41,366 nt of DNA from Clostridia bacterium (GTDB taxonomy: Bacteria > Bacillota > Clostridia > Oscillospirales > CAG-272): positions 1 through 41,366 of the forward strand of contig JAFZRM010000024.1 of assembly GCA_017619885.1 (NCBI GenBank), read 5' to 3'. This document shows, one piece after another, positions 241 to 15,617 of the stretch; the first letter of the stretch is position 1, and the number at the start of each line of letters is the position of its first letter. The notes beneath the pieces are model-generated. The model was not told the DNA's origin and searched no databases. It was given only the letters and a program-made list of their open reading frames with translations. A program made the position numbers and the translations under genes.

Positions 241-264
241 TCTCGATCTTCTGACATAAGATAA

Positions 265-294
265 GAAGTCCGCCGTATAACGGCGGATTTCTTT
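265..294 (+). terminator. Intrinsic terminator
   Basis: GAAGTCCGCCGT-ATA-ACGGCGGATTTC hairpin followed by a T-rich tract, just after the stop at 240. Confidence 0.75.
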
Positions 295-411
295 ATTTCC
301 CGGGATATAAATCGCCGGTCCGCGTTTCGGTGCGGCGTAACAAAACAGATTATGAAATACTATGCCGTGCTGAAATTGAAGACGCTTCGCTGATGAAGAG
401 ATTTGAAATTG

Positions 412-453
412 AACAAAAAAGCAGACCGATTTTGATTTCAGTCTGCTTTTGTT
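412..453 (-). terminator. Intrinsic terminator for 485..1996
   Basis: AACAAAAAAGCAGAC...GTCTGCTTTTGTT inverted repeat; U-tract on the minus strand. Confidence 0.7.
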
Positions 454-484
454 GAATGCGATTTTGCTCACAAAATGAATATCA

Positions 485-1996: not shown

Positions 1997-2033
1997 ACTT
2001 TACCTCCGTATTTTACGCTATTCAATTTCTTTC

Positions 2034-2062
2034 ATTATAGATCAAATCGTCACCGTTGTCAA
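2034..2062 (-). promoter_or_regulatory. Sigma-A promoter
   Basis: Minus strand TTGACA (2062-2057), 17 bp spacer, TATAAT (2039-2034). Confidence 0.8.
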
Positions 2063-2125
2063 GTGGTGTTTTCCATTTATTGTCGGTTATCCGATAAAAA
2101 GAAAGATAAATTGAAATATATACCC

Positions 2126-2165
2126 AAAAAAAGAAGACCGCTTGCCCGACGGCAGACGGCCTTTT
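2126..2165 (-). terminator. Intrinsic terminator for 2178..3728
   Basis: Minus strand GGCCGTCTGCC-GTCG-GGCAAGCGGTC followed by TTCTTTTTTT. Confidence 0.65.
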
Positions 2166-2177
2166 GATCACAGTTTA

Positions 2178-3728
2178 TTATTTCTTCTTTTTCTTGGAGA
2201 GGACTATGCCGCATACTACGGCAGCGACTACTACCACAGCCGCAACAGCGATGCCGATGATGGCGCCGGTGTTGGATTTCTTTTCGCCGGTCGAGCCGCC
2301 GTCTGTCGTTACGTCGGCAGTGCCGGGAGCAGCCTGCGTACCGTCGTCGGCGGTGTTGTCGCCGGAAGCGGCGGTCGTGTCGTCAGCGGGCGCGGTGGTG
2401 TCGTCAGCGGCGGTCGTTGCGGTGCCCCACTGGCTGTCATAGTAAGCGCCCATATTGGCGTAGTGATAAGCATCCTTTTCGCTGCGGAAGAAACCGATCC
2501 ACATTATGTCGGCTTCCTGCTCGTTGAGCGAGCCGTCGCCGGCGATGTCGAGACGGAAAGCGTTGATCAGACCTTCCCAGGTCGCCTCGTCGGTGAGGTC
2601 GATGCAGAGGATCCTCCAGCCGTTGTCGTTGTCTTCATCATAATCGCCTTCAGCCCAGGCAAAGCCGATGTGAGAGTCGTTCTGAGCTGCGTAAACTTCG
2701 CCGGCGCAGTACCACAGAGAAGCGGATCCGCCGATCTCGTCGAGGTCCTTATAAAGTATCGCCCATACCGGGAACTCTTCGGCTTTGTAGGAGCCTGTGT
2801 TGACGTTTCCGTTCAGCATAGGCGCGTTCTCGTCAAACGTGATATGAAGCGATCCGTCGTCGTTGACGATAGAGGTCATGCCGCCTCCGGGCGTGTTCTT
2901 CTTGACTCTGTCAGCATTCCACAGCCAGCAGGGCTCGCCTTCCGGAACAGCGGGAGTTTCTTCTATCGGAGGTCTCGGCTTGAGATCGTCGGGTATATAC
3001 GGATCGGACGCGTCGGTACCGGTCGGCTTGCTGCCGTTGAATTCGGTGACCGTGAACACGATCTGCTCTCTGGTGCCCTGATGTCCGGTAAGACCTATGT
3101 AAGCCTCATCGTTTTCCATATACTGAACGAACTTGCTCGCCTTCATATCGACGCCGTTGACGTAAACGTTATATTTGCCGTCTTCCGGTTTGATCTCGAG
3201 CGTGATAGCTTCGCCCTCGTAAATGTTGACGTCGCTGTTCGTCATCGTGAGGTTAGTCATGGCGACGGACGGCGAGCACAGATAGGATTCAAGCGAGCAT
3301 CCGGCGGAACTCGGTCTGATAAGGCAGAACCAGCCGCAGCCGTAACCGGCGGCGCCCTGCGCTATCTTCTGGCTGTCCCAGATGGAGAAGGAGAGCCATT
3401 TATCGGCGCTGCCGTCGCAGAATTTGTCAACGACGACGGTCATCGATATACCGTTCTTATAGCTGACCTTTTCTTTGGTCTGAAGCGTGCCCCAGCCGTT
3501 GCTGCCCATATCTTTGAGCTGATCGTCGGTGCAGGTGTACATCTGGACGCCGAGGTCAACGTAACGGATACCGGGAGTCTTCGGCAGGCTGTCGTCTTCG
3601 CCGTATTCTTCCTTGTATGCGTTGGCAGACGCATAGGGGACCCACTCGTTGTCGGCGGCGTTTGCGGTGAACACGAACATGGACATGAGCATCGCGGCCG
3701 TCAGGATCATTGCGAATATTTTTCTCAT
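2178..3728 (-). CDS. Secreted, C-terminally anchored surface protein; paralog of 485..1996
   Basis: Collinear shared motifs (NEWVPY, GVQMYT, DKW.SF..W, AAGYG.GW.CLIRP, LYKDLDEIG, NDNGWR); KKSNTG-TM-KKKKK tail. Confidence 0.8.
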   Translation of the reverse strand: MRKIFAMILTAAMLMSMFVFTANAADNEWVPYASANAYKEEYGEDDSLPKTPGIRYVDLGVQMYTCTDDQLKDMGSNGWGTLQTKEKVSYKNGISMTVVVDKFCDGSADKWLSFSIWDSQKIAQGAAGYGCGWFCLIRPSSAGCSLESYLCSPSVAMTNLTMTNSDVNIYEGEAITLEIKPEDGKYNVYVNGVDMKASKFVQYMENDEAYIGLTGHQGTREQIVFTVTEFNGSKPTGTDASDPYIPDDLKPRPPIEETPAVPEGEPCWLWNADRVKKNTPGGGMTSIVNDDGSLHITFDENAPMLNGNVNTGSYKAEEFPVWAILYKDLDEIGGSASLWYCAGEVYAAQNDSHIGFAWAEGDYDEDNDNGWRILCIDLTDEATWEGLINAFRLDIAGDGSLNEQEADIMWIGFFRSEKDAYHYANMGAYYDSQWGTATTAADDTTAPADDTTAASGDNTADDGTQAAPGTADVTTDGGSTGEKKSNTGAIIGIAVAAVVVVAAVVCGIVLSKKKKK

Positions 3729-3765
3729 ATTATACCTCCATAATATTTCGCATATACGTGATTAT

Positions 3766-3794
3766 ATTTTACTATCAAAAATGCTATTTGTCAA
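3766..3794 (-). promoter_or_regulatory. Sigma-A promoter
   Basis: Minus strand TTGACA (3794-3789), 17 bp spacer, TAAAAT (3771-3766). Confidence 0.65.
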
Positions 3795-3859
3795 GTATTA
3801 TTTGTATAAATTCAATAAAATTGATTTGAAAACCGCGTATGCAGCCCGAATGTCCTGCG

Positions 3860-4423
3860 TTATTCGGCAAGTGAGCGGTAAAGACGCGGCGGCGCTAGGA
3901 TGAACGCACGCTCAAAATAGTCGAGCTGTGTCAGATATTCGCGTACAGTGCCGGATGTGAGCAGCACGGGCATGCGATTGTGAACATCCGCCATATCGTC
4001 GTCCGCGCCGCGCGTGAATATGACGAATTTCTTTACCGGTCCGTATTCGTTATATGCGCCTGCCATATACACTATATCGTCGTCCGTGCATTTGAAAAGA
4101 TATTTGATCTTTGTTTCCCTCGACCATTCGTAAAAGCCGGTCGCGGGTATGACGCAGCGGCGCTGATAAAGAGCTTCTCTGAAGAACCTTTTGCCGACGG
4201 CGGTCTCGCTTCTGGAATTGATAACGGGTTTCGAATCGCCCGAAGGGGAGGGGAAGCCCCAGAACGCGTATTTCGCCCTGATCTTGCCGTCGTACTCGGT
4301 TATGATCGGCGCGGGATCAGTCGGGTAAATGTCTCCGACCGGCTCCCTGAAGCCCGCCTGCTTTAAAAATTTTGTCATCAGACTGTCTTCGTCATCTGTA
4401 AAGACGGTATATCTTCCGCACAT
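3860..4423 (-). CDS. SOS response-associated peptidase (SRAP/YedK/HMCES family, abasic-site processing)
   Basis: N-terminal MCGRY, plus NSRSET, GFYEW and HNRMPVLL motifs. Confidence 0.9.
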   Translation of the reverse strand: MCGRYTVFTDDEDSLMTKFLKQAGFREPVGDIYPTDPAPIITEYDGKIRAKYAFWGFPSPSGDSKPVINSRSETAVGKRFFREALYQRRCVIPATGFYEWSRETKIKYLFKCTDDDIVYMAGAYNEYGPVKKFVIFTRGADDDMADVHNRMPVLLTSGTVREYLTQLDYFERAFILAPPRLYRSLAE

Positions 4424-4430
4424 ATCTGCT

Positions 4431-6425
4431 TCACATCCTTAACTTTACGACGCTTCTGCCGGGCACGCTTATATCGCGTTCGTCGAATGTCGCCGTGACT
4501 GTTTGCTCAAATGGATTGATCACTATCATTATCTTTTCACTTTGATATTCCCAGCTGACCGAGACGAGCGCAGGCAGACTGTTGCCGAACGGTGCGAGAC
4601 CGCATTCAAGCGCCGGCGACGGCATCATTCTGCCGTAGTTGAGAAAGTCGGAAAGACCCGAGTTTCGCGCGTCGGAGAGCGTATTAAGGAATTTCAGGAC
4701 CGTTTCTTTGTCTGGCATTACGGAGAAATCGCGCGTGCCCCACGACGGCGAAATATAACCTTCCGGCGTCAGTATGAGAGTCGGCACGTCGCCCGCGGCG
4801 AATGAATAAGCGAGGCGATAAAGCAGCGCGTCGGTGTCGCGCGGCAGCGGATCGCTCACCTGGTTGCCCATGAAATTGCGGATAAATTCATGAAATAGAA
4901 ACGCGTACATAGGTACGGGTCTTCCCAGGATAGATGAAAGCTCGTATCTGTCATCGCTCATCGGCAGCATACCGATATAAGGCTCCGCAGTCGCGGATTC
5001 ACAGCCGAGGATCATGCCGGGGCTCTGCTTTTTCCATTCGGAAAGCATTTTCTGCATTTTAACGGTCATCCATGCGCCGGGCACGGGGGGATGTCCGTGC
5101 CTTCTTGAATAGCAAAGATACTGGCCGCCGCCGTGGTTCTGATCGAGGATCTGCGCGTAATCGGCTCCGCAGTCGAACAGAGGAGTGTAAGCTTCCGACA
5201 GTATCTCTTTGCCGCGTTCGCACGCCGGGCAGACGTCGTAACCCGATCGCTGACCGGGACAGATGCGGCTTTTTGAAACGCTTCCGTCCGGCGCCGCGCA
5301 CATTATTTCAAGAAGATTTTCGTCTTTTATACGCTGCGAATTGTCGTATGTTTCAACAAGATTCGAGTGTTCGGTGAAGCCGAAGCCTGAACAGTAAACG
5401 CCGAGCATATAGCCGCGGCTGTGCAGCGCGTCACGGAATTCATTGAACGCGTCGATACCGCCGTAAGGCGGCCACACGTAAGGCGGCGCCCACGGCGCGG
5501 TGCCCTCCCAGTGCATTAAAAGCGCGAGCGGCCTCATACCCGATTTCTCAGCTATATCATCGATCAGCGGCAGCGCATTGACGTATGGAAACAGTGCGTT
5601 CGGATCCATTTTATCCATATCGTGGATACCGCGGACCGGGTAAGACACTACGACAGTATTATCGGTGTACCACTTCGGCAAAGAATCGTTTTCTATGACC
5701 TTTACCGCGCACGGCGGAAGATTCGACTCGAAGAAATCTCTGTAAGCGGATGAAGCCGCCTCCCAGCTGCCTTTGCCCGAGCTTATAACGAGCGGATAAC
5801 CGGTCGAGACGTCCTGACCGGGCTCGTCGCCGCAGTACAGCTTGAATATAAGTTCGCCGCCGCGGACGGTTATCTCCTTGGGTCCGCGCGCCGGGTCGTT
5901 TGCTGAAACCGTCAGATACCCCGGATCTCCTCCGTCATACAGATACGAAGCGGTCTGCGCGAACATCATGTTCGGAAACATCATGTAGTTGCCGTAAGAC
6001 GGATATTCCGGCGGCATATCGTATAATTTACTGAGCGTGTAGATGATCACGCCCTCGTTATACGGAAGAAGCAGGGAACTGCCATCTTCACCTCCGTCGC
6101 CGCACAATGCGGGCAGACGAAGCGGTAAAAGGATTATCCATTCAACAGCACAATCGGAATTGTTTGTAATATCAGCGAATACCTTTAAATCTTTTTCTCT
6201 TATGATTCTGATGTTGACAACTATGTCGGTGCAAAAACCGGAGAATACGTAGCTGTCCCCGATGTTTTCGATTTGCTTTGCATCGGAGGCGCAGATCTCG
6301 ATCTTTTGTCCGTCGGGGCTGATCAGCCGCAGACGAAACAGCGGTGTCGGCGACGCGCAGAACTGCCGGCTGTCCTTTGATAATGATTCCAGAAAAGCGC
6401 CGTTAATTTTGAGATTAAGAGACAT
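4431..6425 (-). CDS. DUF6259-like putative glycoside hydrolase (TIM barrel)
   Basis: 664 aa ORF with QILDQNHGG..LCY...HGHP and GCE...EPY motifs; family assigned from recall. Confidence 0.6.
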   Translation of the reverse strand: MSLNLKINGAFLESLSKDSRQFCASPTPLFRLRLISPDGQKIEICASDAKQIENIGDSYVFSGFCTDIVVNIRIIREKDLKVFADITNNSDCAVEWIILLPLRLPALCGDGGEDGSSLLLPYNEGVIIYTLSKLYDMPPEYPSYGNYMMFPNMMFAQTASYLYDGGDPGYLTVSANDPARGPKEITVRGGELIFKLYCGDEPGQDVSTGYPLVISSGKGSWEAASSAYRDFFESNLPPCAVKVIENDSLPKWYTDNTVVVSYPVRGIHDMDKMDPNALFPYVNALPLIDDIAEKSGMRPLALLMHWEGTAPWAPPYVWPPYGGIDAFNEFRDALHSRGYMLGVYCSGFGFTEHSNLVETYDNSQRIKDENLLEIMCAAPDGSVSKSRICPGQRSGYDVCPACERGKEILSEAYTPLFDCGADYAQILDQNHGGGQYLCYSRRHGHPPVPGAWMTVKMQKMLSEWKKQSPGMILGCESATAEPYIGMLPMSDDRYELSSILGRPVPMYAFLFHEFIRNFMGNQVSDPLPRDTDALLYRLAYSFAAGDVPTLILTPEGYISPSWGTRDFSVMPDKETVLKFLNTLSDARNSGLSDFLNYGRMMPSPALECGLAPFGNSLPALVSVSWEYQSEKIMIVINPFEQTVTATFDERDISVPGRSVVKLRM

Positions 6426-6446: not shown

Positions 6447-6965
6447 CTATGAAATATCGGTCTTCCACCGAAGATTGCCGTCATCTTTCAAAAAAGAGAA
6501 ACCGCAGCGTTTTAAGACGTTCTGAGACTTAATGTTCTCCTTCAATGTTTCCGCTAATACTGTTTTTATACCGAGTGACTTGCCGAAGAGCAAAAACGCT
6601 TTGAGCGCTTCCGTCATATATCCGTGCCCTTCATATTGCGGGTTCATTCCGTAACCGACTTCCGTCACACCGTCTTTCGGCACGTACTTATAATCTATTG
6701 AGCCGATTATCTTGCTGTTTTCTTTCAGAACGATCAGAAATTCAGTGAAAAACAGATAATTGTCCGGATCATTGGCAATTTCTCTTTCAAGCTTCAACAG
6801 AAAGTTTTGAAGCAGATGATCGAGCTCCTCGCCCAGATACATAACGTCGAATTCACGCTCGAAGCCCGGCAGATCCGCGTTGAAAAGAGCGAGGTTTTCT
6901 TTTGTATACGGAAACAGAACGAGCCGCTCTGTTTCGATGTATGACGTCATCTTTTCAAGATTCAT
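6447..6965 (-). CDS. GNAT (RimJ/RimL-type) N-acetyltransferase
   Basis: IETERLVL, EVGY...YEGHGYMTEAL, NIKSQNVLKRCGF. Confidence 0.9.
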   Translation of the reverse strand: MNLEKMTSYIETERLVLFPYTKENLALFNADLPGFEREFDVMYLGEELDHLLQNFLLKLEREIANDPDNYLFFTEFLIVLKENSKIIGSIDYKYVPKDGVTEVGYGMNPQYEGHGYMTEALKAFLLFGKSLGIKTVLAETLKENIKSQNVLKRCGFSFLKDDGNLRWKTDIS

Positions 6966-6968
6966 ATT

Positions 6969-7568
6969 TCACCTCGTCGACCTTATCCAATCGTCAAGGA
7001 ACTTCATCTGCCCGTCAGTATGGAACCAGTGTTCGCCGCCGCGCATGACCGTGAGCGATGCGTTGTGTTTTCCGGCAAATTCCGTGATCGTAGAAAGCGC
7101 CGTCATATTATCGTTTTCGCCGTACAGGATATGCGTCGGCACGTCCCATTCGAGCGGATTTTCCCGCACGTAGCATAGATATTCCCATGACAAAGCTACG
7201 CCGAAAGGCGTTTCTATCGTCTTTTTCGCTTCGAGCTCAGCTTCCGTGACGGACGCGTATTTCATCATGTCCGTTATCAGCTTTTCCATATCGACTATGG
7301 GCGAGATGAACCATGCGGCTTCGATATCTTCCGATGAAAACGCGTTCATGGAAAAGAACGCGCCTACGCTGTTAGCGATGAGAAGCACGTTGTTGTATTT
7401 TTCTTTCAGTTCTTTTATCTTGCCGGAGAATTCCGGCTTGCAGTCCCACGGCGTGTCGCAAGTATAATCGAGCCCGATAACGTCGCAATCGGCAAACAAA
7501 GACCGGTAATGATCGGCTTCTGCGGCGCTTCCGCCCTTTCCGTGAACGTACAAAACTGCCTTTTTCAT
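6969..7568 (-). CDS. Alpha/beta hydrolase
   Basis: Likely start MKKAVLYVHGKGG at 7568 (ATGA overlap with upstream gene); ANSVGA nucleophile elbow; GEHWFH. Confidence 0.85.
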   Translation of the reverse strand: MKKAVLYVHGKGGSAAEADHYRSLFADCDVIGLDYTCDTPWDCKPEFSGKIKELKEKYNNVLLIANSVGAFFSMNAFSSEDIEAAWFISPIVDMEKLITDMMKYASVTEAELEAKKTIETPFGVALSWEYLCYVRENPLEWDVPTHILYGENDNMTALSTITEFAGKHNASLTVMRGGEHWFHTDGQMKFLDDWIRSTR

Positions 7569-8023
7569 TTCTTCGCCAGCCTTTTGTAGATCAAAAGCTG
7601 CGGATCTGCGCCGTTCTCGCGGTAACTGCAAATCAGTATAAACTCTTCGTCGGCGATCACGCCGTAACATACGTCATCGTCAGCGACACATATCTGATTT
7701 CCGAGATATATATCGTTCGGGTTCAAAAACGTCGCCTCGGCGCCGTTCGGGAGCGTATATTTCAGATCGACGAAAAATCCCGGAAGCTCGTTTAAATTTT
7801 CGATCGCGGGAATGCCGAGAGAAGCGAGCAGGGAATTGATCTGCAAGACAAACCCCGCCTTGAATTCTTCATACGCGGCTTTACCGTGTTTTTTAATGTA
7901 CTGCGCGGCGATGCAGCTGCCGCCGAAAGGACATCCGTTCGTCGCGGCACAACCGTGACAGGTATCTTTAAAACCGCACTGCGAGCAGTCGGCGCCGCAA
8001 ATCGTTTTGTTTTCAGATTTCAT
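7565..8023 (-). CDS. DUF3795-like Cys-rich protein
   Basis: N-terminal ICGADCSQC...CHGC...CP..G.C motif. Confidence 0.75.
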   Translation of the reverse strand: MKSENKTICGADCSQCGFKDTCHGCAATNGCPFGGSCIAAQYIKKHGKAAYEEFKAGFVLQINSLLASLGIPAIENLNELPGFFVDLKYTLPNGAEATFLNPNDIYLGNQICVADDDVCYGVIADEEFILICSYRENGADPQLLIYKRLAKK

Positions 8024-8048
8024 TTGTCTCCCCCTGTGTTATATAAAT

Positions 8049-8489
8049 TCAGAATCCACGGCGTTTGATGTCGTATTTCCCTGACCAGCTGTGAACTTCA
8101 AATTCAAACTGTGAAATATACTCGGGCGTGCAGAAGAAGCGCCGCGCCAGAAATTCTTTGTTTATTTTGTCAAAATCGGATCTTTCGATCTCGCCGCCGA
8201 AACGCCTTTCGCCGTCTTTGTAAAACTCGACCGGAAGCACCTCGTCGTCAAGTATCCGGCGTATATAATCGGCAGCGTCCCCATACTCTTCACAGTGAAG
8301 ATGCTGAGTGGCAAAACACACGATATACTCGACGTATTCCTCGGTCTTTTCGCGATTATAGAACTTTTCTTCGAATACTTCTATCTTTCTGCCGCTTTCG
8401 CGATCCGATATCAACGCGTGATCATCGTCGATAAACAGATCGAGGCCGTACGCTGTTATCATATCGTTCAGAAAATCCCAGTCTTTCAT
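8049..8489 (-). CDS. Hypothetical protein
   Basis: 146 aa ORF with GGAGG RBS, tightly packed in the minus-strand gene run. Confidence 0.7.
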   Translation of the reverse strand: MKDWDFLNDMITAYGLDLFIDDDHALISDRESGRKIEVFEEKFYNREKTEEYVEYIVCFATQHLHCEEYGDAADYIRRILDDEVLPVEFYKDGERRFGGEIERSDFDKINKEFLARRFFCTPEYISQFEFEVHSWSGKYDIKRRGF

Positions 8490-8503
8490 ATAAATCCTCC
8501 GGT

Positions 8504-9268
8504 TTAATCTGTCTTTCTGGCGACGATCAGGTATCTGTGCGTCGTTCCTGCGATCCTGCCTTCACGCTCGATGATTTCATGCATTTTCAGCAGCCGGTCA
8601 AAGCATCGGTCTACGGAGAAGCCGGGGAATTCCCACTCGATTATCCTTGCAAACCATACGAAGGCGCCGACGTCGTAAAAACATATCGTGCCGAAAGCCT
8701 CGTCCGCCTGAATGATCTCGAAACCCGCGTCCTCAAATCTTTGCCTTTGCTCGCGCAGATTCTCGTGCGGGAACGGCGTTTCGGTGCCGGGGAGGACCAT
8801 CTCGACAAGCTCTCTGTCGTTGTCAGATCCCACCTGCTGTGTGATGAACAAGCCGCCGGGCTTCAGCAGCCGTTTGATCTCAGTCGGATCGAAGTCTCCG
8901 TGACGGTTTATGATCACATCAAAGGATCCGTCGTCAAACGGGATATGCGACGCGTCACTGCATTCACGCAAATCTATCCCGAGCGGCAAAAGTCTTTCCA
9001 TACAAAGTTTTACGTTCGGAGGATAACCCTCCGTCGCGGCCGTGTTTTCATACGGGTGATGAAGAGAGAGAAGAAACTCGCCGCCGCCCGTATCGTAATC
9101 AAGAAGCTTCATATCGTCCCGAAGAAAACAACGGATTATCTTTTCATAATCCCACGGTAAAACGTCTTCTTCCTCATAGCGCCCGCTGATATGCGAAAAA
9201 TCCCACCCTTTTATAAAGGCGCAAGCCTCTTCATTTTGCCAAACTGTTCTCAGTTCTTCAGCCGACAT
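8504..9268 (-). CDS. Class I SAM-dependent methyltransferase
   Basis: GWDFS, LLDYDTGGGE, FDVIINRH, LKPGGLFITQQVG; start at 9268 has a GGAG RBS (ORF is open to 9310). Confidence 0.9.
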   Translation of the reverse strand: MSAEELRTVWQNEEACAFIKGWDFSHISGRYEEEDVLPWDYEKIIRCFLRDDMKLLDYDTGGGEFLLSLHHPYENTAATEGYPPNVKLCMERLLPLGIDLRECSDASHIPFDDGSFDVIINRHGDFDPTEIKRLLKPGGLFITQQVGSDNDRELVEMVLPGTETPFPHENLREQRQRFEDAGFEIIQADEAFGTICFYDVGAFVWFARIIEWEFPGFSVDRCFDRLLKMHEIIEREGRIAGTTHRYLIVARKTD

Positions 9269-9372
9269 ACGTATCTCCATGAACGAAATATAACTGCTTT
9301 TGTACTGCATATGTTTTTTGTTTACATCATTTTTATTATCCTGTCAGTTAACATCTATGCTGTCGCTTCAAC

Positions 9373-9484
9373 CTAGGCTCGAGTGATCAATGTAACTACT
9401 TCCACATGCTTTGGGACGATAGCGTGAATAAAAAGGCACATATTCACGCTGTTGTCACGACCAGCGGCGTAAAGAATTTGCCGT
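9373..9484 (-). repeat. Junction J4: inverted-repeat arm plus rlmD 3'-end copy HVEVVTLITRA*
   Basis: 9408-9373 translates to HVEVVTLITRA*; IR 9415-9430/9441-9456; 9401-9484 matches 10470-10553 at 68/84 nt without gaps. Confidence 0.85.
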
Positions 9485-9510
9485 TGCCCGAATAAGATCG
9501 TGTCATCGGT

Positions 9511-9954
9511 TCAGAAAACCCATTCGAACTCTACATAATCAATATCTGCATCCAAAATGATACAGCCGTTTGAGAACAGCTTAATGATGATGGAACATGA
9601 ACCGACATAGTGGGACAAATATTCCAATTTGAACTTACCTTCGGGCAATTCAGTTAACAAACTGTTTTTAATACGCTTATAGTGACCGTCTATTGAAAAC
9701 AGTTTTGAAAGCAGCCTCATCGGCTTTACCCATTTATAAATTGAGAAATCATCTGAATCAAAAGCATGATGATATCTGATTATAAGCGATTTTACGCCCG
9801 GTTTATAAAATTGAATTGAATCGTTGTTGGAAATACCGTCTTCAAATACAAATTCAATACATTGATTATCCAGATGGATATGTTGTATGACACAATCGTG
9901 AGGAATCGGTATTGTAGGCAGTGATTCTCCATTCAGGACGTATTTTTCTATCAT
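9511..9954 (-). CDS. Hypothetical protein (cassette D cargo)
   Basis: 147 aa AT-rich ORF with GAGG RBS, between junctions J3 and J4. Confidence 0.75.
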   Translation of the reverse strand: MIEKYVLNGESLPTIPIPHDCVIQHIHLDNQCIEFVFEDGISNNDSIQFYKPGVKSLIIRYHHAFDSDDFSIYKWVKPMRLLSKLFSIDGHYKRIKNSLLTELPEGKFKLEYLSHYVGSCSIIIKLFSNGCIILDADIDYVEFEWVF

Positions 9955-10001
9955 GTTTTCTCATTCCTCTCGTATTTGTTTAATATACATCTATCCCGTA
10001 G

Positions 10002-10044
10002 TCACGACCCGGCTCGAGACATCAATACGACTGATTCCACATGC
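10002..10044 (-). repeat. Junction J3: rlmD 3'-end copy HVESVVLMSRAGS* (no IR arm)
   Basis: 10013-10044 is 31/32 identical to 11806-11837. Confidence 0.85.
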
Positions 10045-10070
10045 GTCTTAAAAGGAAAGAAATCAATCTT

Positions 10071-10376
10071 TTACAAACAATAATCTATTTTCCATTCGTC
10101 AAAGTTGATTCCGCCTATTGATATCAAAACAATCTCATTCCATCGGTCTTTGATAGATTTGCCGTCAAAAATCGGAGCTTCAAAGAGTTCTTTTGCGGTT
10201 TTACATTCCCAACCGTTTTCAATGTCACAGTAACCTACCCAGTATGGCATTTCATATTGCGGCAAATATCCAATATAATGTTCCACTTCGTTCGGATCCG
10301 TTTTGAAATAGAAAGAAGTCTCGTCAATGTTTCTGCACTTTCTATCAAACAAGTCAAACAATGTTTCGTAATTCAT
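10071..10376 (-). CDS. Hypothetical protein (cassette C cargo), possibly toxin-immunity-like
   Basis: 101 aa acidic/aromatic ORF with ELFEAPIFDGKSIKDRW motif. Confidence 0.7.
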   Translation of the reverse strand: MNYETLFDLFDRKCRNIDETSFYFKTDPNEVEHYIGYLPQYEMPYWVGYCDIENGWECKTAKELFEAPIFDGKSIKDRWNEIVLISIGGINFDEWKIDYCL

Positions 10377-10553
10377 GATAACGTACCTTTCTTTGTTCCG
10401 AATTCTTCATCAGTCCGGGTGAACTCCAAATGATCGTCAATATTTTTCCGACGTAAAAGAACAACCGTCTCCACATGCCTCGGGACAATGGCGTGAATAA
10501 AAAAACCGTTATCAACGCTGTTGTCTCGACCCGCCTCGTAAAGAATATGCCGT
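10373..10553 (-). repeat. Junction J2: inverted-repeat arm plus extended rlmD 3'-end copy HVETVVLLRRKNIDDHLEF...
   Basis: 10477-10373 encodes a 34 aa tail; IR 10481-10499/10510-10528. Confidence 0.85.
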
Positions 10554-10575
10554 CGATCACTATGCAAAAGAAGAT

Positions 10576-11745
10576 TTACTCATCAAGATCATAATCATCC
10601 GGATTGAGCAATTTGATTCCCTGAGCATGATGCTCTTCAACAATTTCTCCCCACCTACGGTTGTGTTCTTCAATATACGCCCGTTTGCTTCCGTAACACC
10701 GCCAGGCACACCATCCGCATTGACCTTCCGGATTCTTCAAGGGGATAAAATGGACTGTTATGTCCAGCAGTTTTCTCGGATCGCCTTCAGGCGTAAAACG
10801 AACGCCGAATTGTCTTTTCCATTCTTCATCAATTTTTCTTTTCCAAGGCAGTCCTTCTTTCACACCTTCTCTAATTGGAAAATCGGGCAATTCTGCATAG
10901 TAAATCCACTGTTCGGTTTGCGTTTTTCTTTTCTCCAATTGAAGCGGAATGGTTTTTCTCGGATAACGGTCGAGATCATATTCCAACTGAACGTCGCGAA
11001 AACGGATTTTCTCTTGCTCAACATAACTGCCTGAAAAGGCAATCGCAACGCCTTTCGTTTTTCCTCCGGTATTAATCACAAAGTAACATTGGTCCTTTCC
11101 AATCTCACAAGGCATCAAACTGGGGCTTGTAAAGGACAGCTTTGGAGGCTCTGATTTTGAGGCCGATTCAGGAAGGTTGAAATATAAGGTTTGTACTCCT
11201 TCTGTAAACTGTTCCGTGATAAGCTCATCGCAGAACCGCCCCTGCCCGGATGTAAGCCCTAACAGCGGTTCAAGACCATCCAAGGCATCCTCTGCAAAAA
11301 CGTATTTCTGTGTAAGGACAGATTTCCATTGTGCATTATCAGTAACAATATCTTTCCACCTTGCCGGTGTTGAACGAATTTTGAGTTCGGGATAGCTTCC
11401 TGTTTTTGCCCAGGCGACGATGTCAAGTTTTTTGTTTACGCGGTTCAATATCAGACAGTCGCTGTCAAAACATGAAACGGTCAGCACGTCTGCCGATAAT
11501 TTCTCTGAAAGCGGGTTGCAAATATCTCGAATCGTTTCTTCTGTACAGAAATCAAGCCCGTCCGAACAAACAGAAACCCATTTCCCGCCTGCATCATAAA
11601 TTGAAAGCGACAAATCTGCTTCATCCGGACTATTCTTCTTCACGTATCCTTTTGCATTCAGTATCTCTGTCAAAGTCGACCGAAAAAAGTCCGCATCATA
11701 TTCCGCTGTTTTGCGCACATGAAGATTCGAGAAAAACCAACCCAT
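10576..11745 (-). CDS. Hypothetical protein (cassette B cargo)
   Basis: 389 aa ORF with GGGAGGG RBS; no confidently recognised family. Confidence 0.8.
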   Translation of the reverse strand: MGWFFSNLHVRKTAEYDADFFRSTLTEILNAKGYVKKNSPDEADLSLSIYDAGGKWVSVCSDGLDFCTEETIRDICNPLSEKLSADVLTVSCFDSDCLILNRVNKKLDIVAWAKTGSYPELKIRSTPARWKDIVTDNAQWKSVLTQKYVFAEDALDGLEPLLGLTSGQGRFCDELITEQFTEGVQTLYFNLPESASKSEPPKLSFTSPSLMPCEIGKDQCYFVINTGGKTKGVAIAFSGSYVEQEKIRFRDVQLEYDLDRYPRKTIPLQLEKRKTQTEQWIYYAELPDFPIREGVKEGLPWKRKIDEEWKRQFGVRFTPEGDPRKLLDITVHFIPLKNPEGQCGWCAWRCYGSKRAYIEEHNRRWGEIVEEHHAQGIKLLNPDDYDLDE

Positions 11746-11797
11746 GCTTTTACCCTCCCTTTCTGTTTTGAACTAAATATCATCCAACTTGTACACT

Positions 11798-11886
11798 CTA
11801 CCCGTCTCGAGACATCAATACGACTGATTCGACATGCCTTGGAGCAGCAGGTCAAATAAAAAAGCTTGTATTCGACCCACTGGCTC
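11798..11886 (-). repeat. Junction J1: diverged inverted-repeat arm plus rlmD 3'-end copy HVESVVLMSRDG*
   Basis: 11836-11798 tail; IR 11842-11858/11869-11886 with the same AATA-N10-TATT geometry. Confidence 0.8.
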
Positions 11887-11974
11887 ATCCCAATGAAGGA
11901 ATGGGCAATTCCCCAGGACTGGTCAGGGTTGAGACAGTAGGATGAATATCGGTACGCCGATAAACCGGAATTTG

Positions 11975-12478
11975 TCAAACCATTCTCGACAACAGAAAAT
12001 CAGGACGTTCCCCTATTAAAACCGAGTCAGTAACGTCAATTACTTCAATATCGCCCTTCGAGTATTCATCTACAAAACTTCTTTCATTATCAAAGATCAG
12101 CTCTTTCCCATACCAAGGTTTCCCAGACTGGGGAGTAAGCTCCAAATAAACAGTTTTATTTTCGAGATAAAATGTCAAAACGGTATGTTGCTTTCTGCTC
12201 TGCTTATCATGCAAGAGCCATATCTTGCTTGGGATATTACGCTTGTCAAGAATGTATCTCATCAGAACAACAGCATCATTACATGTGCCCACCTTTGCTT
12301 TCATAGTGTCCTCTGGGTCCTGAATGCAATATTCCGTTTGTAAACGGTCAAAAAACTCTTTGTCAAATCCCTTAGTCATATCAGGCTTATATGTTTTGCC
12401 ATTCAAATAGAAGCCGTATTCGTAACCATTATCCAAAAGTTCTTGTTTCAACAGCTTGCATGTTTCTTTTATCAACAT
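11975..12478 (-). CDS. Putative transglutaminase-like (Cys-His-Glu) protein (cassette A cargo)
   Basis: Start MLIKETCK at 12478 after GGAGG; motifs VGTCNDAV, HTVL and VYLE. Confidence 0.65.
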   Translation of the reverse strand: MLIKETCKLLKQELLDNGYEYGFYLNGKTYKPDMTKGFDKEFFDRLQTEYCIQDPEDTMKAKVGTCNDAVVLMRYILDKRNIPSKIWLLHDKQSRKQHTVLTFYLENKTVYLELTPQSGKPWYGKELIFDNERSFVDEYSKGDIEVIDVTDSVLIGERPDFLLSRMV

Positions 12479-12507
12479 TGCTATTCCTCCGTCAAACTCC
12501 GATTTAC

Positions 12508-13839
12508 TCATTTCTTTGTCATTAATACCACCGTCTCCACGTGTCCGGTCTGGGGGAACATATTGAACGGATACGCGGTATCCGCAGAGTAGCTGCCGAG
12601 CAGTTTTTTCAAATCGCGCGCGAGAGTATCGGGATCGCATGAAATGTACAGGAGTTTATCAGGTGCGATGTCAAATATCGCGTCTATTACTTCATCCGAA
12701 AGACCTTTTCGCGGCGGATCGACTATGATCGCGTCGACTTTTCCGTTGACTGCATTTTTAATTACCGAGCTGTCTCCGCAGAGGAATTCAGCATTGTTAG
12801 CTTCGTTCAGGCGCGCGTTGATCCTTGCATTTTCGACCGCTTCCGGCACTATCTCGACCCCTATGAGTCTGCCGGTCCCGCGAGCCGCACACAGCCCGAC
12901 GGTGCCGACGCCGCAGTACAAATCGACGACGACTTCGCTGCCTTTAAGATCGAGCAACTCCGACGCTTTTATATAAAGCGCCTCACAGCAGTCGTGATTC
13001 ACCTGGTAAAACGACGCCGGTGATATCTCGAACTTCCTGCCGCACAGGATGTCGTGAAGTGTTTCTTTACCGTAAACGCTTACGTATTTTTTTCCGTAGA
13101 TAACGTTAGTGTTTTCCTCGTTCACATTTACCGTGATACCGCAGACGCGCGAATGCGCCGAAGTTACGGCGGAAATCAGCTCGTCACAGAAAGGCAGTCT
13201 TTTTGCGTTGATAACAATAATAAGAAGGATCCCTACCGTCCCGGATCTCATACAAATGTGTCTTAAAAGTCCTTTTCCGGTCTTTTCGCTGTAAGCGGTG
13301 ATACCGCGCGAGTCGGCGAAATCACAAACGGTCCGCGCTATGCGCGGGAATTCCGGATCGGCGATAATACAGTCCTCGCAGAAAACGATATCGTGGCTGT
13401 GCTGTGCGTAGTAACCGAACGATACATGCCCGTTTTTGTCGACCCCGACGGGGAACTGCGCTTTGTTGCGGTATCTCGTGCCGTCGCCGACGGACGTGAC
13501 CTCTGCTACCGAGATATCAACGCCCGCGCGAAGAAAAGCCCCTTCGACGATCCGACGCTTTATTTGCAATTCATGCTCCGGCGTGATATTTTTGAAAGAA
13601 CAGCCGCCGCATCTTTTATATCCGCACAAGGGCTGTACGCGATTCTGTGACGGTTCGATGAGCTCGGTGATCGCGGCGACACAGTAGTTTTTCGCCGTCT
13701 TTATGACTTTGACTTTGCAAACGTCTCCTGTGACGGCGCCGATAACGAAAAACACGGTGCCGTCAACGCGGCATACACCGTTGCCTTCATTATTCATATC
13801 GTCGATTCTGACTGTGAAAATCTGATCTTTTGCAAACAT
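12508..13839 (-). CDS. rlmD: 23S rRNA (uracil-5)-methyltransferase RlmD/RumA
   Basis: TRAM domain, C..K.CGGC Fe-S motif, DLYCGVG, VDPPRKG, YISCDPDTLARD, MFPQTGHVETVVLM. Confidence 0.95.
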   Translation of the reverse strand: MFAKDQIFTVRIDDMNNEGNGVCRVDGTVFFVIGAVTGDVCKVKVIKTAKNYCVAAITELIEPSQNRVQPLCGYKRCGGCSFKNITPEHELQIKRRIVEGAFLRAGVDISVAEVTSVGDGTRYRNKAQFPVGVDKNGHVSFGYYAQHSHDIVFCEDCIIADPEFPRIARTVCDFADSRGITAYSEKTGKGLLRHICMRSGTVGILLIIVINAKRLPFCDELISAVTSAHSRVCGITVNVNEENTNVIYGKKYVSVYGKETLHDILCGRKFEISPASFYQVNHDCCEALYIKASELLDLKGSEVVVDLYCGVGTVGLCAARGTGRLIGVEIVPEAVENARINARLNEANNAEFLCGDSSVIKNAVNGKVDAIIVDPPRKGLSDEVIDAIFDIAPDKLLYISCDPDTLARDLKKLLGSYSADTAYPFNMFPQTGHVETVVLMTKK

Positions 13840-13862
13840 CGTCCGTCAGCCTTTTTTCTTTA

Positions 13863-13891
13863 ATTATACTATGAATATCGTGCTTTGTCAA
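13863..13891 (-). promoter_or_regulatory. Consensus sigma-A promoter of rlmD
   Basis: Minus strand TTGACA (13891-13886), 17 bp spacer, TATAAT (13868-13863). Confidence 0.85.
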
Positions 13892-13902
13892 GGATAAAAA
13901 TC

Positions 13903-13930
13903 GAAAAGCCCCGCATAAGCGAGGCTTTTC
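13903..13930 (-). terminator. Terminator after tRNA-Glu
   Basis: GAAAAGCCCCGC-ATAA-GCGAGGCTTTTC hairpin immediately 3' of the tRNA CCA. Confidence 0.75.
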
Positions 13931-14005
13931 TGGTGACCCGTGGGGGAATCGAACCCCCGTTTCCAGCGTGAGAGGCTAGCGTCTTGGCCGCTTGACCAAC
14001 GGGCC
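13931..14005 (-). tRNA. tRNA-Glu (anticodon CTC)
   Basis: GGCCCGTTGGTCAAGCGGCCAAGACGCTAGCCTCTCACGCTGGAAACGGGGGTTCGATTCCCCCACGGGTCACCA; cloverleaf, GTTCGA T-loop, encoded CCA. Confidence 0.95.
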
Positions 14006-14017
14006 GATTGCTTTTGC

Positions 14018-14046
14018 AGTATACCATACATTAAGCAAAAAATCAA
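14018..14046 (-). promoter_or_regulatory. Sigma-A promoter of tRNA-Glu
   Basis: TTGATT, 17 bp spacer, TATACT with TG extension. Confidence 0.65.
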
Positions 14047-14051
14047 GAGGT

Positions 14052-15617
14052 TTAAGCAAAAAAATTTGATTTTTTTTCGCTTTTTTTGAATATGCGCAGC
14101 GCCCAGCTTTTTTCGTCGTCTGAAATGAAACCGAACGTGCGCAAAAGCGCCGTATAAAACACGGTCATCACAACCGATCCGACGATTACCGTAATGACGA
14201 GTTCGCCGTAATCGATGCGAAGATATCTGAAGAAAAGCCCTGTCAGACACGCCGCGCCAGTCATGCAAAGCGACGGGACAACGACCGACCTAATAAGCCC
14301 GAGCTTTACGTTCACACATCGGAAAAGCTTTGAAAGGCTCAGTGCAGCATTCAATATCTCACAGACGTAAATCACAGCGACGTATCCTTTTATCCCGAAC
14401 GGCGGGAGCAGGAAGAACACGAGTATCACGGAGACAAGCGCGTCTATTATGTTATATCTCATCGAAGCGAACTGTTCGCCGAGGCCTTTAAGTATCGCGT
14501 CAGTCGTGTTGTCAACGTACATAACCGGTATCAGAAACGCAAATATTCGGATGTAAATTCCGGCTTCGGCGCTGTCGTAAAGCAGCGCGCCGAGCGCGTC
14601 GGCGTAATACGCGAATATCCCGGCGATTCCGACGGAAAAGATGACCGATATCTTCATTATCCGCCCGGTGACGTATTCGATCGATTTATCGTTTCCTATT
14701 TCCTTATATCTCGTCACTTCCGGAACAAGCAGGCCCGTGAACGCCGACAGAAACGCCATCGGGAAAAATATAACCGGGAATACCATACCGGAAACGACTC
14801 CATACGACGACAGCGCGGCTTCCGTCGTCGAGCCGTTCTTTATCAGCCCTTTCGGAATAAGGATATGTTCGATAGTCACGAGAGCGCTTCTTATATACGA
14901 GCTGACGGCGATCGGGATCGCCATTTTGATCAGCCGCCACGACAGATCGGACGACGGCGGAGCTGACAGATCCTCAATGCGTTTTCGGTCGAACAGATAA
15001 AGGACGAACGAAACGATAAACGCGAGCACTTCGGATATCGTTATACCTATAACTATAGCAGCGGCGGCTTCTTCGATCCCTTTGCCTGCGATCGCGGCAA
15101 GAAGAGCGGCTGTCAGAAACATCCTGATGAACTGCTCGAGGATATTTGTCACTGCATTTTTCGCGACGCGGCGCACGGCGGAGAAATAGCCGGACAGGGC
15201 GTTTGAGACCGCAAGCGGCGGCAGGCTCAGCGCGAGTATCCGAAGCGACAGCGTCGCGCGAACGTCTCCGAGCCAGTCGCATGCGATCGCCTCGGCAGAC
15301 GTCAGAAGGATCACCATACCAGAAAATCCGAACACGAGCGCGTAGATAATACAGCGAAGCATCGCGGCGCGCACGCCTTTGCCGGAGCCTCGGACGATCT
15401 GCTGCGAGACCATACGCGTCGTCGCCAGATATATGCCCGACGTCGCGAACGTCACGGCAAACGTGTAAACGGACATGACGAGCGAAAAAAGGCCGACTCC
15501 GGAGGCTCCGATCCTGTTAGTTAAATATACGTTGAATATGACCGTCAGCATTCTCATGGTCACCGACGTCGCGGTCAATATCAACCCGTTTATTATAAAT
15601 TGCTTAACCAGCTTCAA
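14052..15617 (-). CDS. SpoVB/MurJ-like MOP-superfamily flippase (polysaccharide biosynthesis protein)
   Basis: Polytopic membrane protein; YLTNRIGASGVGLFSL and AILKGLG motifs; TTG start. Confidence 0.8.
   Translation of the reverse strand: MKLVKQFIINGLILTATSVTMRMLTVIFNVYLTNRIGASGVGLFSLVMSVYTFAVTFATSGIYLATTRMVSQQIVRGSGKGVRAAMLRCIIYALVFGFSGMVILLTSAEAIACDWLGDVRATLSLRILALSLPPLAVSNALSGYFSAVRRVAKNAVTNILEQFIRMFLTAALLAAIAGKGIEEAAAAIVIGITISEVLAFIVSFVLYLFDRKRIEDLSAPPSSDLSWRLIKMAIPIAVSSYIRSALVTIEHILIPKGLIKNGSTTEAALSSYGVVSGMVFPVIFFPMAFLSAFTGLLVPEVTRYKEIGNDKSIEYVTGRIMKISVIFSVGIAGIFAYYADALGALLYDSAEAGIYIRIFAFLIPVMYVDNTTDAILKGLGEQFASMRYNIIDALVSVILVFFLLPPFGIKGYVAVIYVCEILNAALSLSKLFRCVNVKLGLIRSVVVPSLCMTGAACLTGLFFRYLRIDYGELVITVIVGSVVMTVFYTALLRTFGFISDDEKSWALRIFKKSEKKSNFFA

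Follow-up and report, generated by a model that had tools for sequence, protein, structure and literature searches.

The window analyzed here, i.e., the whole stretch of 41,366 nucleotides from a Clostridia bacterium, carries on its minus strand an intact rlmD gene followed by four single-gene cassettes, A to D (Table 1). As read from the window, a cassette begins with a replacement rlmD tail that opens at the His-Val-Glu codons (HVExVVL...stop), continues with one ORF, and closes with an end piece, which in three of the four cassettes (A, B, and D) is the inverted repeat described below. Cassette C lacks an end piece and has only a short rlmD-like arm (..FFPFKT) before the His codon at 10043. 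This His codon, with its tail HVESVVLMSRAGS and without an inverted repeat, marks a fourth junction that was overlooked in an earlier note made from the sequence alone. The final tail copy is the original rlmD tail, now displaced, or else marks where another unit begins.

Table 1. Features of the rlmD array and its inverted repeats (window coordinates).
Feature	Position	Strand	Details
rlmD	12508..13839	-	intact, 443 aa
Cassette A	11837..12543	-	tail 12543..12508; ORF A 12478..11975 (167 aa); type-2 end piece 11896..11837
Cassette B	10478..11836	-	tail 11836..11798 (HVESVVLMSRDG stop); ORF B 11745..10576 (389 aa); type-1 end piece 10567..10478
Cassette C	10044..10477	-	tail from 10477 (HVETVVLLRRKNIDD..., extending to 10354); ORF C 10376..10071 (101 aa)
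Cassette D	9409..10043	-	tail 10043..10002 (HVESVVLMSRAGS stop); ORF D 9954..9511 (147 aa); type-1 end piece 9510..9409
Last tail copy	9373..9408	-	HVEVVTLITRA stop
J1 inverted repeat, type 1	9415..9456		arms 9415-9430 / 9441-9456, spacer 9431-9440; 16 nt, 88% complementary
J2 inverted repeat, type 1	10484..10525		arms 10484-10499 / 10510-10525, spacer 10500-10509; 12/16 paired (hand count)
J3 inverted repeat, type 2	11842..11886		arms 11842-11858 / 11869-11886, spacer 11859-11868; one bulge, three transitions (hand count)

The rlmD product matched TIGR00479 (rumA) with an E-value of 2.9e-106 over profile positions 2-432 of 432, and the Pfam family tRNA_U5-meth_tr was matched to the end of its profile. 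The last 12 codons of the gene (HVETVVLMTKK stop) are the tail brought by cassette A, which completes rlmD through the end of TIGR00479. As in the att sites of elements that target rumA/rlmD with a large serine recombinase, the junctions fall in the last ~11-13 rlmD codons and the element brings an in-frame replacement tail. The cassettes resemble those of integrons in that each contains a single, co-oriented, promoterless ORF; a promoter scan performed no better than shuffled sequences (9 found vs. 8.4 expected). Searches of PADLOC, NCBIfam, and Pfam assigned no family to ORFs A-D, the sole exception being a weak match of ORF D to Csn2 (E = 0.005), and the domain search identified no recombinase gene among the window ORFs.

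At three junctions, the earlier note had reported ACATGC followed by an inverted repeat of fixed geometry, and all details that we checked by re-reading the coordinates hold. ACATGC is present on the plus strand at 9404-9409, 10473-10478, and 11832-11837 and is the reverse complement of G-CAT-GT, which covers a minus-strand His-Val codon pair whose first His base is 9408 (J1), 10477 (J2), or 11836 (J3). The near arm ends in AATA at 9430, 10499, and 11858, in each case 22 nt from the His base, and is followed by an A-rich spacer of 10 nt and then by TATT, TATC, and TATT, respectively. A repeat search reproduced the ungapped match of 68/84 nt (81% identity) between 9401-9484 and 10470-10553. The repeat always adjoins a copy of the rlmD tail and lies at the ends of mobile cassettes, consistent with its proposed role as a cassette end.

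Among 108 copies of the end piece, pairing was best with a 10-nt spacer in 93, and 76.5% of the cells were paired, compared with 30-53% when the partner was slid. Type 2 (the J3 type) has both arms altered at pairs 26-52, 27-51, 28-50, 22-56, and 18-60 and was identified at six further junctions in other genomes, where both arms are likewise changed and still complementary. With respect to the covariation suggested at J3, a second family with concerted changes in both arms does exist; it represents one type switch (7/110 sequences), and as many pairs changed on both sides as observed were also obtained in 169 of 500 shuffles. Strong conservation is confined to the core-proximal arm. The highly conserved stretch beside the core (TTTT, the 16-nt arm, and CCAAGG; ~30 nt) is nearly invariant across several host families, whereas tails and ORFs diverge; the distal arm varies and is missing at two loci (L052 and L069).

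The same cassettes occupy different array positions in different genomes, and cross-genome comparisons reveal that homology breaks 1-6 nt before a His codon and 7-25 nt past the next one, which points to recombination in G-CAYGTNGA, just outside the repeat. Judged from these alignments, the crossover lies 6-14 nt past the core-proximal arm, in this core and outside the inverted repeat; the boundary interval contains the GA of the Glu codon, with limits that span more than the dinucleotide. For instance, L018 2022-2897 corresponds to L025 1155-2030 (96%, 877 nt): this unit occupies the second cassette position in one genome but directly adjoins the rlmD body in the other, and its homology begins 1 nt before His and stops 7 nt past the next His. 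Cassette D matches L055 2022-2665 (83% over 644 nt), the match beginning 1 nt ahead of His 10043 and ending 7 nt past His 9408. In L028 and L063, homology starts 6 nt before His despite preceding end pieces of different types. DNA homology of cassette A with L063 extends from window position 12569 to 11962, and cassette C, whose ORF recurs in L024, shows DNA homology from 10540 to 10054 (92.6%). Furthermore, contigs assembled from metagenomes of three studies contain pieces of the window connected at the cores in a different order (12539|11834, 12537|9404, and 9391->10467), these rearranged joints being known from assembled contigs alone and not from circles or excision products. The joints 9435->9998, 10521->11789, 10477->12776, and 10559->12520 were set aside because they may be replacements in other organisms, and differences in read depth among end pieces, cassettes, and rlmD were not taken as copy numbers.

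These boundary comparisons bear out the earlier description of the locus as attP/attC-like. The accompanying proposal that the repeat is a binding site for a recombinase or directionality factor fits in that serine-recombinase elements share the core, but the crossover lies beyond the repeat. The inverted repeat is situated wholly on one side of the core; dyad symmetry around GA was not apparent (agreement at 5 of 24 positions, left half vs. the reverse complement of the right half, counted by hand on the consensus), and no similarity between the rlmD-side arm and the end piece stood out at shifts of -12 to +12.

An HMM built from the 108 copies identified only the three junctions in the 2.59-Mb genome of this bacterium (82% complete; E = 1e-32, 6e-32, and 1.5e-7), together with weak matches to bare rlmD tails. 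Terminator-like sites were absent from the three repeats, the six found in 9300-12600 all being elsewhere. The motif is thus not the genome-wide REP-like or terminator repeat that the earlier note had named as the observation that would overturn its reading. In public genomes, the type-1 motif was detected in 112 stretches, nearly all from metagenome-assembled genomes (MAGs) of rumen or gut Clostridia, three of which (L026, L040, and L075) are chance matches without an end piece. The anticipated co-location with rlmD tails was recovered: among loci with at least 1.9 kb of upstream DNA (n = 45), in 26 the first end piece is preceded, at a distance of 0.5-1.8 kb, by the 3′ end of a co-oriented rlmD. 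Of the ORFs upstream of an end piece, 72 of 78 are co-oriented, as are 68 of 80 of those downstream. The exact type-1 pattern was not found in an even sample of 400 genomes of the class besides the genome studied here, and blastn matches were obtained in 4 of 60 relatives, which indicates that the type-1 piece is generally rare, its occurrences clustering in certain lineages from rumen and gut. A blastn search of PLSDB plasmids with a 161-nt block gave no match, and the exact type-1 pattern occurred in only one stretch of viral contigs.

Each of the four ORFs has counterparts in cassettes of other MAGs, with 70.5-97% amino acid identity. The counterpart of ORF A, in the cassette that directly follows rlmD in L063, is 78% identical; ORF B is 70.5% identical to an ORF downstream of an end piece in L038, and ORF C 97% identical to an ORF in L024. 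The end piece near ORF A is of type 2 in the window and of type 1 in L063, so ORF and end piece do not form a fixed unit. The 122 ORFs flanking end pieces include many GNAT, glyoxalase, and Cass2-type genes, as well as chloramphenicol-acetyltransferase, beta-lactamase-fold, and aminoglycoside-kinase-like genes. Defence-like genes, including TIR genes, are also represented in the cassette cargo pool.

Several contigs connect the end piece to large serine recombinases (LSRs). Two of them (G061 and G063:C53), which carry nearly the same element, contain two tandem LSR genes followed by cargo, a type-1 end piece, and the core, and in G062 one LSR gene and one ORF precede the end piece. A further element, whose LSR gene lies ~860 nt from the element end, borders an end piece in L146 and the native rlmD body in L147, with CATGTNGA as the joint in both. 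According to published reports, vanG and ICE-r elements enter rumA at GA and exchange its last 11 codons (PMC4120198), and streptococcal ICEs that encode one serine integrase insert into rumA, the 3′ ends being exchanged reciprocally (PMC4701971).

The earlier expectation that the motif would coincide with the ends of serine-recombinase elements is realized on three related contigs, but an LSR gene lies within 2 kb at only 2 of the 112 loci. No recombinase was found among the 122 ORFs flanking end pieces elsewhere, and a tandem LSR pair in G067:C26 has no end piece within 20 kb. A census of ten array-bearing genomes gave 1-20 LSR matches each; LSR genes are therefore so common in such genomes that the census is unusable as evidence of co-occurrence. 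The genome studied here contains six resolvase-domain and five tyrosine-recombinase matches, all on other contigs. None of its proteins is closely related to the tandem LSRs (≤28.5% identity), and only fragments at contig ends are 45-49% identical to the third LSR.

We also considered whether the end piece is the 3′ end of a recombinase gene, and this was rejected. When proteins exceeding the 44-aa end-piece peptide in length were searched for, the 61 matches measured 80-217 aa, none of recombinase size. The longest frame through an end piece has 116 codons and is of low complexity, and several copies contain stops or frame shifts although the DNA is conserved. None of the complete LSRs in the genome studied here ends in the end-piece peptide. 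An LSR half-site is about 25 nt in length, and the conserved end piece, at ~110 nt, is far longer.

Taken together, the repeat lies in the inner portion of a conserved end piece (~110 nt) with which mobile single-gene cassettes, stacked behind rlmD, terminate; their movement is probably of the LSR type. Units are joined by site-specific recombination in the short core G-CAYGTNGA, which is also the rumA/rlmD position used by published LSR elements, whose integration occurs at a GA dinucleotide. A new unit would enter between the rlmD body and the current tail, supply a new rlmD tail, and displace older units outward, so that the array would grow at its gene-proximal end in an integron-like manner. 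Since the small cassettes contain no recombinase, they would move in trans via LSRs of co-resident phages or conjugative elements. The ~30 nt beside the core most likely constitute the recombinase half-site on the element side. Separated from it by 10 nt, the distal arm is an imperfect inverted copy of the outer part of this near stretch and would most likely serve as a second or accessory binding site. The inverted repeat might bind the recombinase or another protein.

An alternative is that the cassettes are decayed remains of full-size LSR phages or conjugative elements inserted serially in rlmD. The end piece would then be kept by descent, the inverted repeat would have no present function, and identical cassettes would have spread only with larger pieces of DNA or by homologous recombination through tails and end pieces. 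Both tandem accretion and decay to recombinase-less elements that retain att sites are described in one study (PMC5704250). Full-size elements terminate in the same end piece, the distal arm drifts, end-piece types can differ for related ORFs, and end pieces and tails offer 40-110 nt of homology for ordinary recombination. We nevertheless consider this origin unlikely: units turn up in varying places along the arrays, with boundaries that fall 1-7 nt from the same core, decay would need to halt at one ORF every time, and neither the strong co-orientation of neighboring ORFs nor the near invariance of the core-proximal 30 nt across host families with divergent tails and ORFs would be expected.

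It is very improbable that the hairpin is read as single-stranded DNA by an enzyme other than an LSR, similar to attC/IntI or IS200/IS605/HUH systems, with a cut a few bases past the stem foot. The constant distance between hairpin and crossover (6-14 nt past the stem foot), recurrent mismatches at fixed positions, the retained pairing of types 1 and 2 despite different sequences, and the integron-like cargo, rich in GNAT, glyoxalase, and Cass2-type genes, are consistent with such a site. However, the hairpin energies calculated for single-stranded DNA agree with the earlier remark that the strands disagree: the plus strand folds best at J1 (-12.7 kcal/mol, z -5.1, vs. -9.1 for the minus strand) and J2 (-11.4 kcal/mol, z -4.2, vs. 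-7.4), whereas the minus strand is favored at J3 (-9.7 kcal/mol, z -3.3, vs. -5.9, z -0.9 for the plus strand). Across copies, G.T cells numbered 190 on the rlmD-sense strand and 215 on the other, giving no strand-specific hairpin signal. Tyrosine recombinases are absent from the window and from the 122 flanking ORFs, the arms do not fit the integron R/L box consensus (compared by eye), the left partner of the first cassette is plain rlmD coding DNA without an end-piece hairpin, and LSR elements use the same core. Least probable of all is an RNA-level role, in which a transcript hairpin acting as terminator, processing site, or 3′ stabilizer would travel with the cassettes: the hairpin does directly follow each ORF on the coding strand, with modest but non-random sense-strand folding (z -2.1 to -3.3), but no terminator-like site covers the repeats, the T run is in the loop rather than past the stem, an Rfam search of window positions 9000-12800 (E up to 1) gave one weak unrelated match only, J1 and J2 fold better antisense, and no sense-strand excess of G.U is apparent.

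A broader and more tentative possibility is that rumen and gut Clostridia possess an integron-like platform for gene capture based on serine rather than tyrosine recombination, with the last dozen rlmD codons as fixed entry, the end piece as portable site, and a shared cassette pool shuffled in trans by recombinases from resident phages or conjugative elements. Each of the two end-piece types, whose arms differ in a concerted manner, would then correspond to its own recombinase or accessory-protein specificity. The literature searched contained no single-gene cassette arrays of the rlmD kind, and, to our knowledge, integrons are held to be absent from Firmicutes. If active, the system would mean that the integron solution of fixed entry, promoterless cassettes, and portable site has arisen on a different enzyme, and it would provide a route for single genes, including resistance-like genes, between rumen bacteria of different families. 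The conserved end piece is a simple handle for finding such cassettes in metagenomes, and the short, well-defined site might become a tool if the enzyme is found.

Integron cassettes are promoterless, co-oriented, and mostly contain a single ORF, with an imperfect inverted repeat at the end and a fixed proximal entry. The rlmD cassettes share the co-oriented single ORFs, the end repeat, the fixed entry site, and a cargo rich in acetyltransferases, glyoxalase-fold, and small unknown proteins. Unlike integrons, the window contains no IntI, attI/Pc module, R/L box consensus, or strand-specific folding signal; Phage_integrase is absent from the window ORFs, and the five such genes of the genome are on other contigs. 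Integron attC sites conserve structure only, whereas the rlmD end piece conserves arm sequence, and the rlmD entry site is inside a gene whose end is rebuilt at each insertion. SCCmec and other SCC islands occupy the 3′ end of rlmH (orfX) and are moved by CcrAB or CcrC; they form rows of elements, some without recombinase genes and moved in trans, with direct repeats that copy the gene end. Similar to the rlmD array, their target is of the LSR type and falls within the final codons of a gene encoding an rRNA methyltransferase. However, the target is rlmH with Ccr there and rlmD in other hosts here, making this an analogy of design only, and SCC are multi-kb islands whereas rlmD cassettes are single genes with a ~110-nt end piece and an internal inverted repeat.

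CIMEs, as described, are likewise recombinase-less, keep both att sites, and are stacked by the target gene; they are decay products of single ICEs or IMEs, in contrast to more than 100 single-gene units with one end piece across host families here (PMC5704250). The array also resembles the published rumA/rlmD LSR elements (vanG, ICE-r, streptococcal ICEs/IMEs, and CTn5 of C. difficile). These elements are 10-80 kb in length and include an integrase, whereas window-type units span 0.4-1.4 kb, contain one ORF, and lack an integrase; in the streptococcal elements, attR is inside the integrase gene, whereas no long ORF or known long protein spans the end piece here. In both cases, the target is the same place in the same gene, the last ~11-13 codons, a new in-frame tail is given and the old tail displaced, and insertions occur in tandem. 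The crossover reported for these elements is at GA, and the boundary interval of the window cassettes includes the GA of the Glu codon.

The intact rlmD gene, whose product ends in ...NMFPQTGHVETVVLMTKK, is followed by an islet of 36–44% G+C in a genome of 55%, in which each of four single ORFs (A–D) is followed by a further copy of the rlmD tail, i.e., of replacement last codons starting at a His codon. The four ORFs gave no Pfam, NCBIfam, or convincing PADLOC match, and no recombinase of any kind was identified within the window. Reading of the sequence and a repeat search showed that the coordinates and counts of the earlier note are right for three junctions, J1 and J2 (repeat type 1; His codons at 9408 and 10477) and J3 (type 2; 11836). 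At each of them, plus-strand ACATGC reads G-CAT-GT on the minus strand, a His-Val codon pair that starts a short frame (HVEVVTLITRA, HVETVVLLRRKN..., and HVESVVLMSRDG, respectively). In all three, AATA closes one arm exactly 22 nt from the His codon's first base, and a 10-nt A-rich spacer and the second arm come next. The J1 arms are 88% complementary, and J1 and J2 (9401–9484 and 10470–10553) are 81% identical over 84 nt without gaps. A fourth junction had been missed, with a tail at His 10043 and no inverted repeat.

Features of the rlmD locus, relatives of its cassette ORFs, and recombinase modules in other genomes
Feature	Location	Strand	Remarks
rlmD, intact	13839..12508	minus	TIGR00479, E 2.9e-106, full length
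Four single ORFs in the low-G+C islet			167, 389, 101, 147 aa
ORF A			78% amino acid identity to L063
ORF B			70.5% identity to L038
ORF C			97% identity to L024
ORF D			84% identity to L055
ACATGC at three junctions	9404-9409; 10473-10478; 11832-11837	plus	
J1 repeat arms	9415-9430 / 9441-9456		
Five genes after the last tail	6447-9310	minus	GNAT, hydrolase, 152 aa, 146 aa, methyltransferase
Tandem-LSR module	L141/L142 (G061) 11400-15110; L144 (G063:C53) 218-3928 and 9850-11535; L145 (G067:C26)		two LSR genes with an ORF between

The conserved DNA carrying the repeat (the end piece, or block) is specific to these junctions. An HMM built from 108 related copies and scanned against the 2.59-Mb, 82% complete assembly matched only there, plus weakly at bare tails, including that of a second rlmD on contig C123. 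Because the matches are so confined, the genome-wide repeat that the earlier note had considered as a counter-explanation does not apply. The C123 gene, of the rlmD family, ends in ..VDMFPRTEHVETVVLMTRNG (about 5281–5316), and the HMM search found no end piece or extra tail near it. In other genomes, a 109-nt query recovered copies in four of 60 relatives, and 112 stretches of one-genome-per-species contigs, many of them at contig ends, matched a degenerate pattern of the core-proximal arm exactly. Nearly all belong to rumen or gut Clostridia MAGs labelled Oscillospiraceae, Ruminococcaceae, Lachnospiraceae, Erysipelotrichaceae, or Christensenellales. None of 400 genomes sampled evenly from the class had the pattern, and the end piece is therefore rare overall. 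Three candidates (L026, L040, and L075) were rejected as chance matches in which the rest of the block is absent.

The association with rlmD anticipated by the earlier note extends to these genomes: of 45 loci with 1.9 kb or more of upstream DNA, 26 have a co-oriented rlmD 3′ end 0.5–1.8 kb before the first block. ORFs beside blocks are mostly co-oriented (72/78 upstream, 68/80 downstream). By Pfam, the 122 flanking ORFs include many GNAT acetyltransferases, together with glyoxalase/bleomycin-resistance-fold, chloramphenicol acetyltransferase, beta-lactamase-fold, APH, nucleotidyltransferase, TIR, DUF2716, DMP19, Cass2, and HNH proteins; approximately 40 have no Pfam match, and none is a recombinase. 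Putative resistance cargo, identified by family match in L034, L051, L084, L073, L043, L045, and others, comprises a chloramphenicol acetyltransferase (E 1e-64), two beta-lactamase-fold proteins, an APH-family kinase, and glyoxalase/bleomycin-resistance-fold proteins. Nine blocks (L023, L027, L034, L048, L066, L067, L078, L083, and L095) are followed by one and the same long tail, HVETVCCLY(H/R/Q)QK.., with no stop after about 12 codons; it could mark the left end of a single widespread element or be the native gene end of a lineage. In the window, five further co-oriented genes follow the last tail with no end piece between them; relatives (42–43%) of the 146- and 152-aa proteins lie downstream of blocks in L077 and L072, so the array may extend into this region without recognisable junctions.

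Loci that share a cassette in different contexts delimit the unit. A segment 96% identical over 877 nt is the second cassette in L018 (2022–2897) and directly follows the rlmD body in L025 (1155–2030; rlmD His at 1156), and the match runs from 1 nt before the His codon to 7 nt after the next His. Cassette D (10044 to 9401) matches L055 2022–2665 (83% over 644 nt) within the same limits, after a type-1 block in L055 and after a bare rlmD-like arm in the window. The unit thus consists of tail, ORF, and end piece. The match between L028 and L063 starts 6 nt before the His codon despite different types of preceding block, and the near arm is therefore part of the unit preceding the core rather than of the one following it. 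The repeat, taken in the earlier note to define the cassette end, is indeed part of the closing end piece, but the unit limits place the exchange in the core, G-CAYGTNGA, 6–14 nt beyond it.

All four window ORFs recur in arrays of other MAGs. In contigs assembled from four gut metagenomes (three studies), pieces of the window are connected at cores in a different order (12539|11834, 12537|9404, and 9391->10467); these represent other arrangements, not circles. Related ORFs A are followed by a type-1 block in L063 and a type-2 block in the window (623–1237 and 11962–12569, respectively), so an ORF can be combined with another end piece. Some internal junctions without an end piece (window 10044–10068, L043 at 1253, L060 at 816, and L063 at 3196) carry a short rlmD-side arm copy, ..DMFPxTxH or a degraded form of it, ahead of the core and look as if a unit had been excised with a piece of host rlmD.

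According to PMC4120198, vanG and ICE-r elements insert at a GA target in rumA and supply the gene with a new in-frame end, its last 11 codons becoming fused to the element's serine recombinase gene; tandem insertions are possible. PMC4701971 describes rumA as the target of streptococcal ICEs with a single serine integrase as well, the 3′ ends being exchanged reciprocally. Only one viral contig, G061, shows the pattern. Two large serine recombinase (LSR) genes in tandem are followed there by 4 kb of cargo, a type-1 block, and the core, beyond which a third LSR lies on the opposite strand. G063:C53 contains a nearly identical element (LSRs 94–98% identical). In G062, a different LSR (aligned part about 29% identical) and one ORF precede a block. 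At CATGTNGA, the element carrying the third LSR adjoins a block in L146 and a native rlmD body in L147, with homology starting at the His codon. LSR elements thus use the cassette core, and some end in the block. The proposed co-location with serine-recombinase element ends applies to G061, G063:C53, and G062, and to the element of L146/L147, but an LSR lies within 2 kb at only two of the 112 loci.

Other results also speak against a simple LSR picture: the own genome has no close relatives of the tandem LSR pair, the block is not crossed by any long protein or reading frame, a hand count on the consensus revealed no dyad symmetry about GA, and the rlmD-side arm does not resemble the block at any shift. 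We nevertheless lean towards the end piece being the element-side part of a serine-recombinase att site on single-gene cassettes mobilised in trans, in which the approximately 30 nt by the core would be a half-site and the distal arm a second or accessory site. This does not account for the approximately 110-nt length of the conserved piece or for the differing block types beside ORF A and its relative. That the cassettes are passive scars of decayed elements is rather doubtful.

The two tandem LSR genes form a recurrent module with an ORF of approximately 140 aa between them, the start of which resembles a recombinase domain; G063:C53 has another copy of the module in inverted orientation that faces the same junction. 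In the own genome, C56 1–858, C88 66–701, and C11 1–318 are fragments 39–49% identical to the tail-side recombinase of L146/L147, located at contig ends, where the assembly breaks.

Between 27 nt before the His codon and 8 nt after it, the information content of the end piece comes close to the maximum, which is partly imposed by the search pattern, although free positions are near maximal too. It is about half as high in the distal arm and still lower further upstream. Among the 108 type-1 copies, pairing is best with a 10-nt spacer in 93, and the outer half of the distal arm has three main versions with a constant partner; L052 and L069 lack this arm. The second type, that of J3, occurs at six more junctions, with both arms changed and complementarity kept, and 76.5% of cells in a 110-sequence alignment pair, compared with 30–53% when the partner is slid. 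As to the covariation proposed for J3, changes on both sides (five pairs) all come from the seven type-2 rows, in effect one event, and the number of such pairs was reached by 169 of 500 shuffles. A strand signal is absent (G.T cells: 190 on the rlmD-sense strand, 215 on the other), and the better-folding strand is plus for J1 and J2 and minus for J3, which justifies the earlier caution about a strand-specific hairpin. Pairing kept and no strand signal mean that the repeat is maintained, but a double-stranded dyad would explain this as well as any other form. That another enzyme recognises it as a folded single strand, which the kept pairing would suit, is accordingly improbable. An RNA element is more improbable still: Rfam returned nothing for the repeats, and a scan found no terminator-like site coinciding with them. 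The end-piece consensus has a direct repeat made up of AACGGCAT, a T-rich stretch, and ATTC, with copies at about 75 nt (upstream of the distal arm) and 32 nt (in the spacer and near arm) before the His codon; it could be a third arm-like site.

The rlmD/rumA target and the tail swap are already known for large elements. Within the literature searched, mostly outside subscription journals and without supplements, neither this end piece nor arrays of single-gene cassettes at rlmD were described. In lining up elements that lack a recombinase at an rRNA methyltransferase gene, the arrays resemble SCC islands at rlmH; in cassette design, they resemble integrons.
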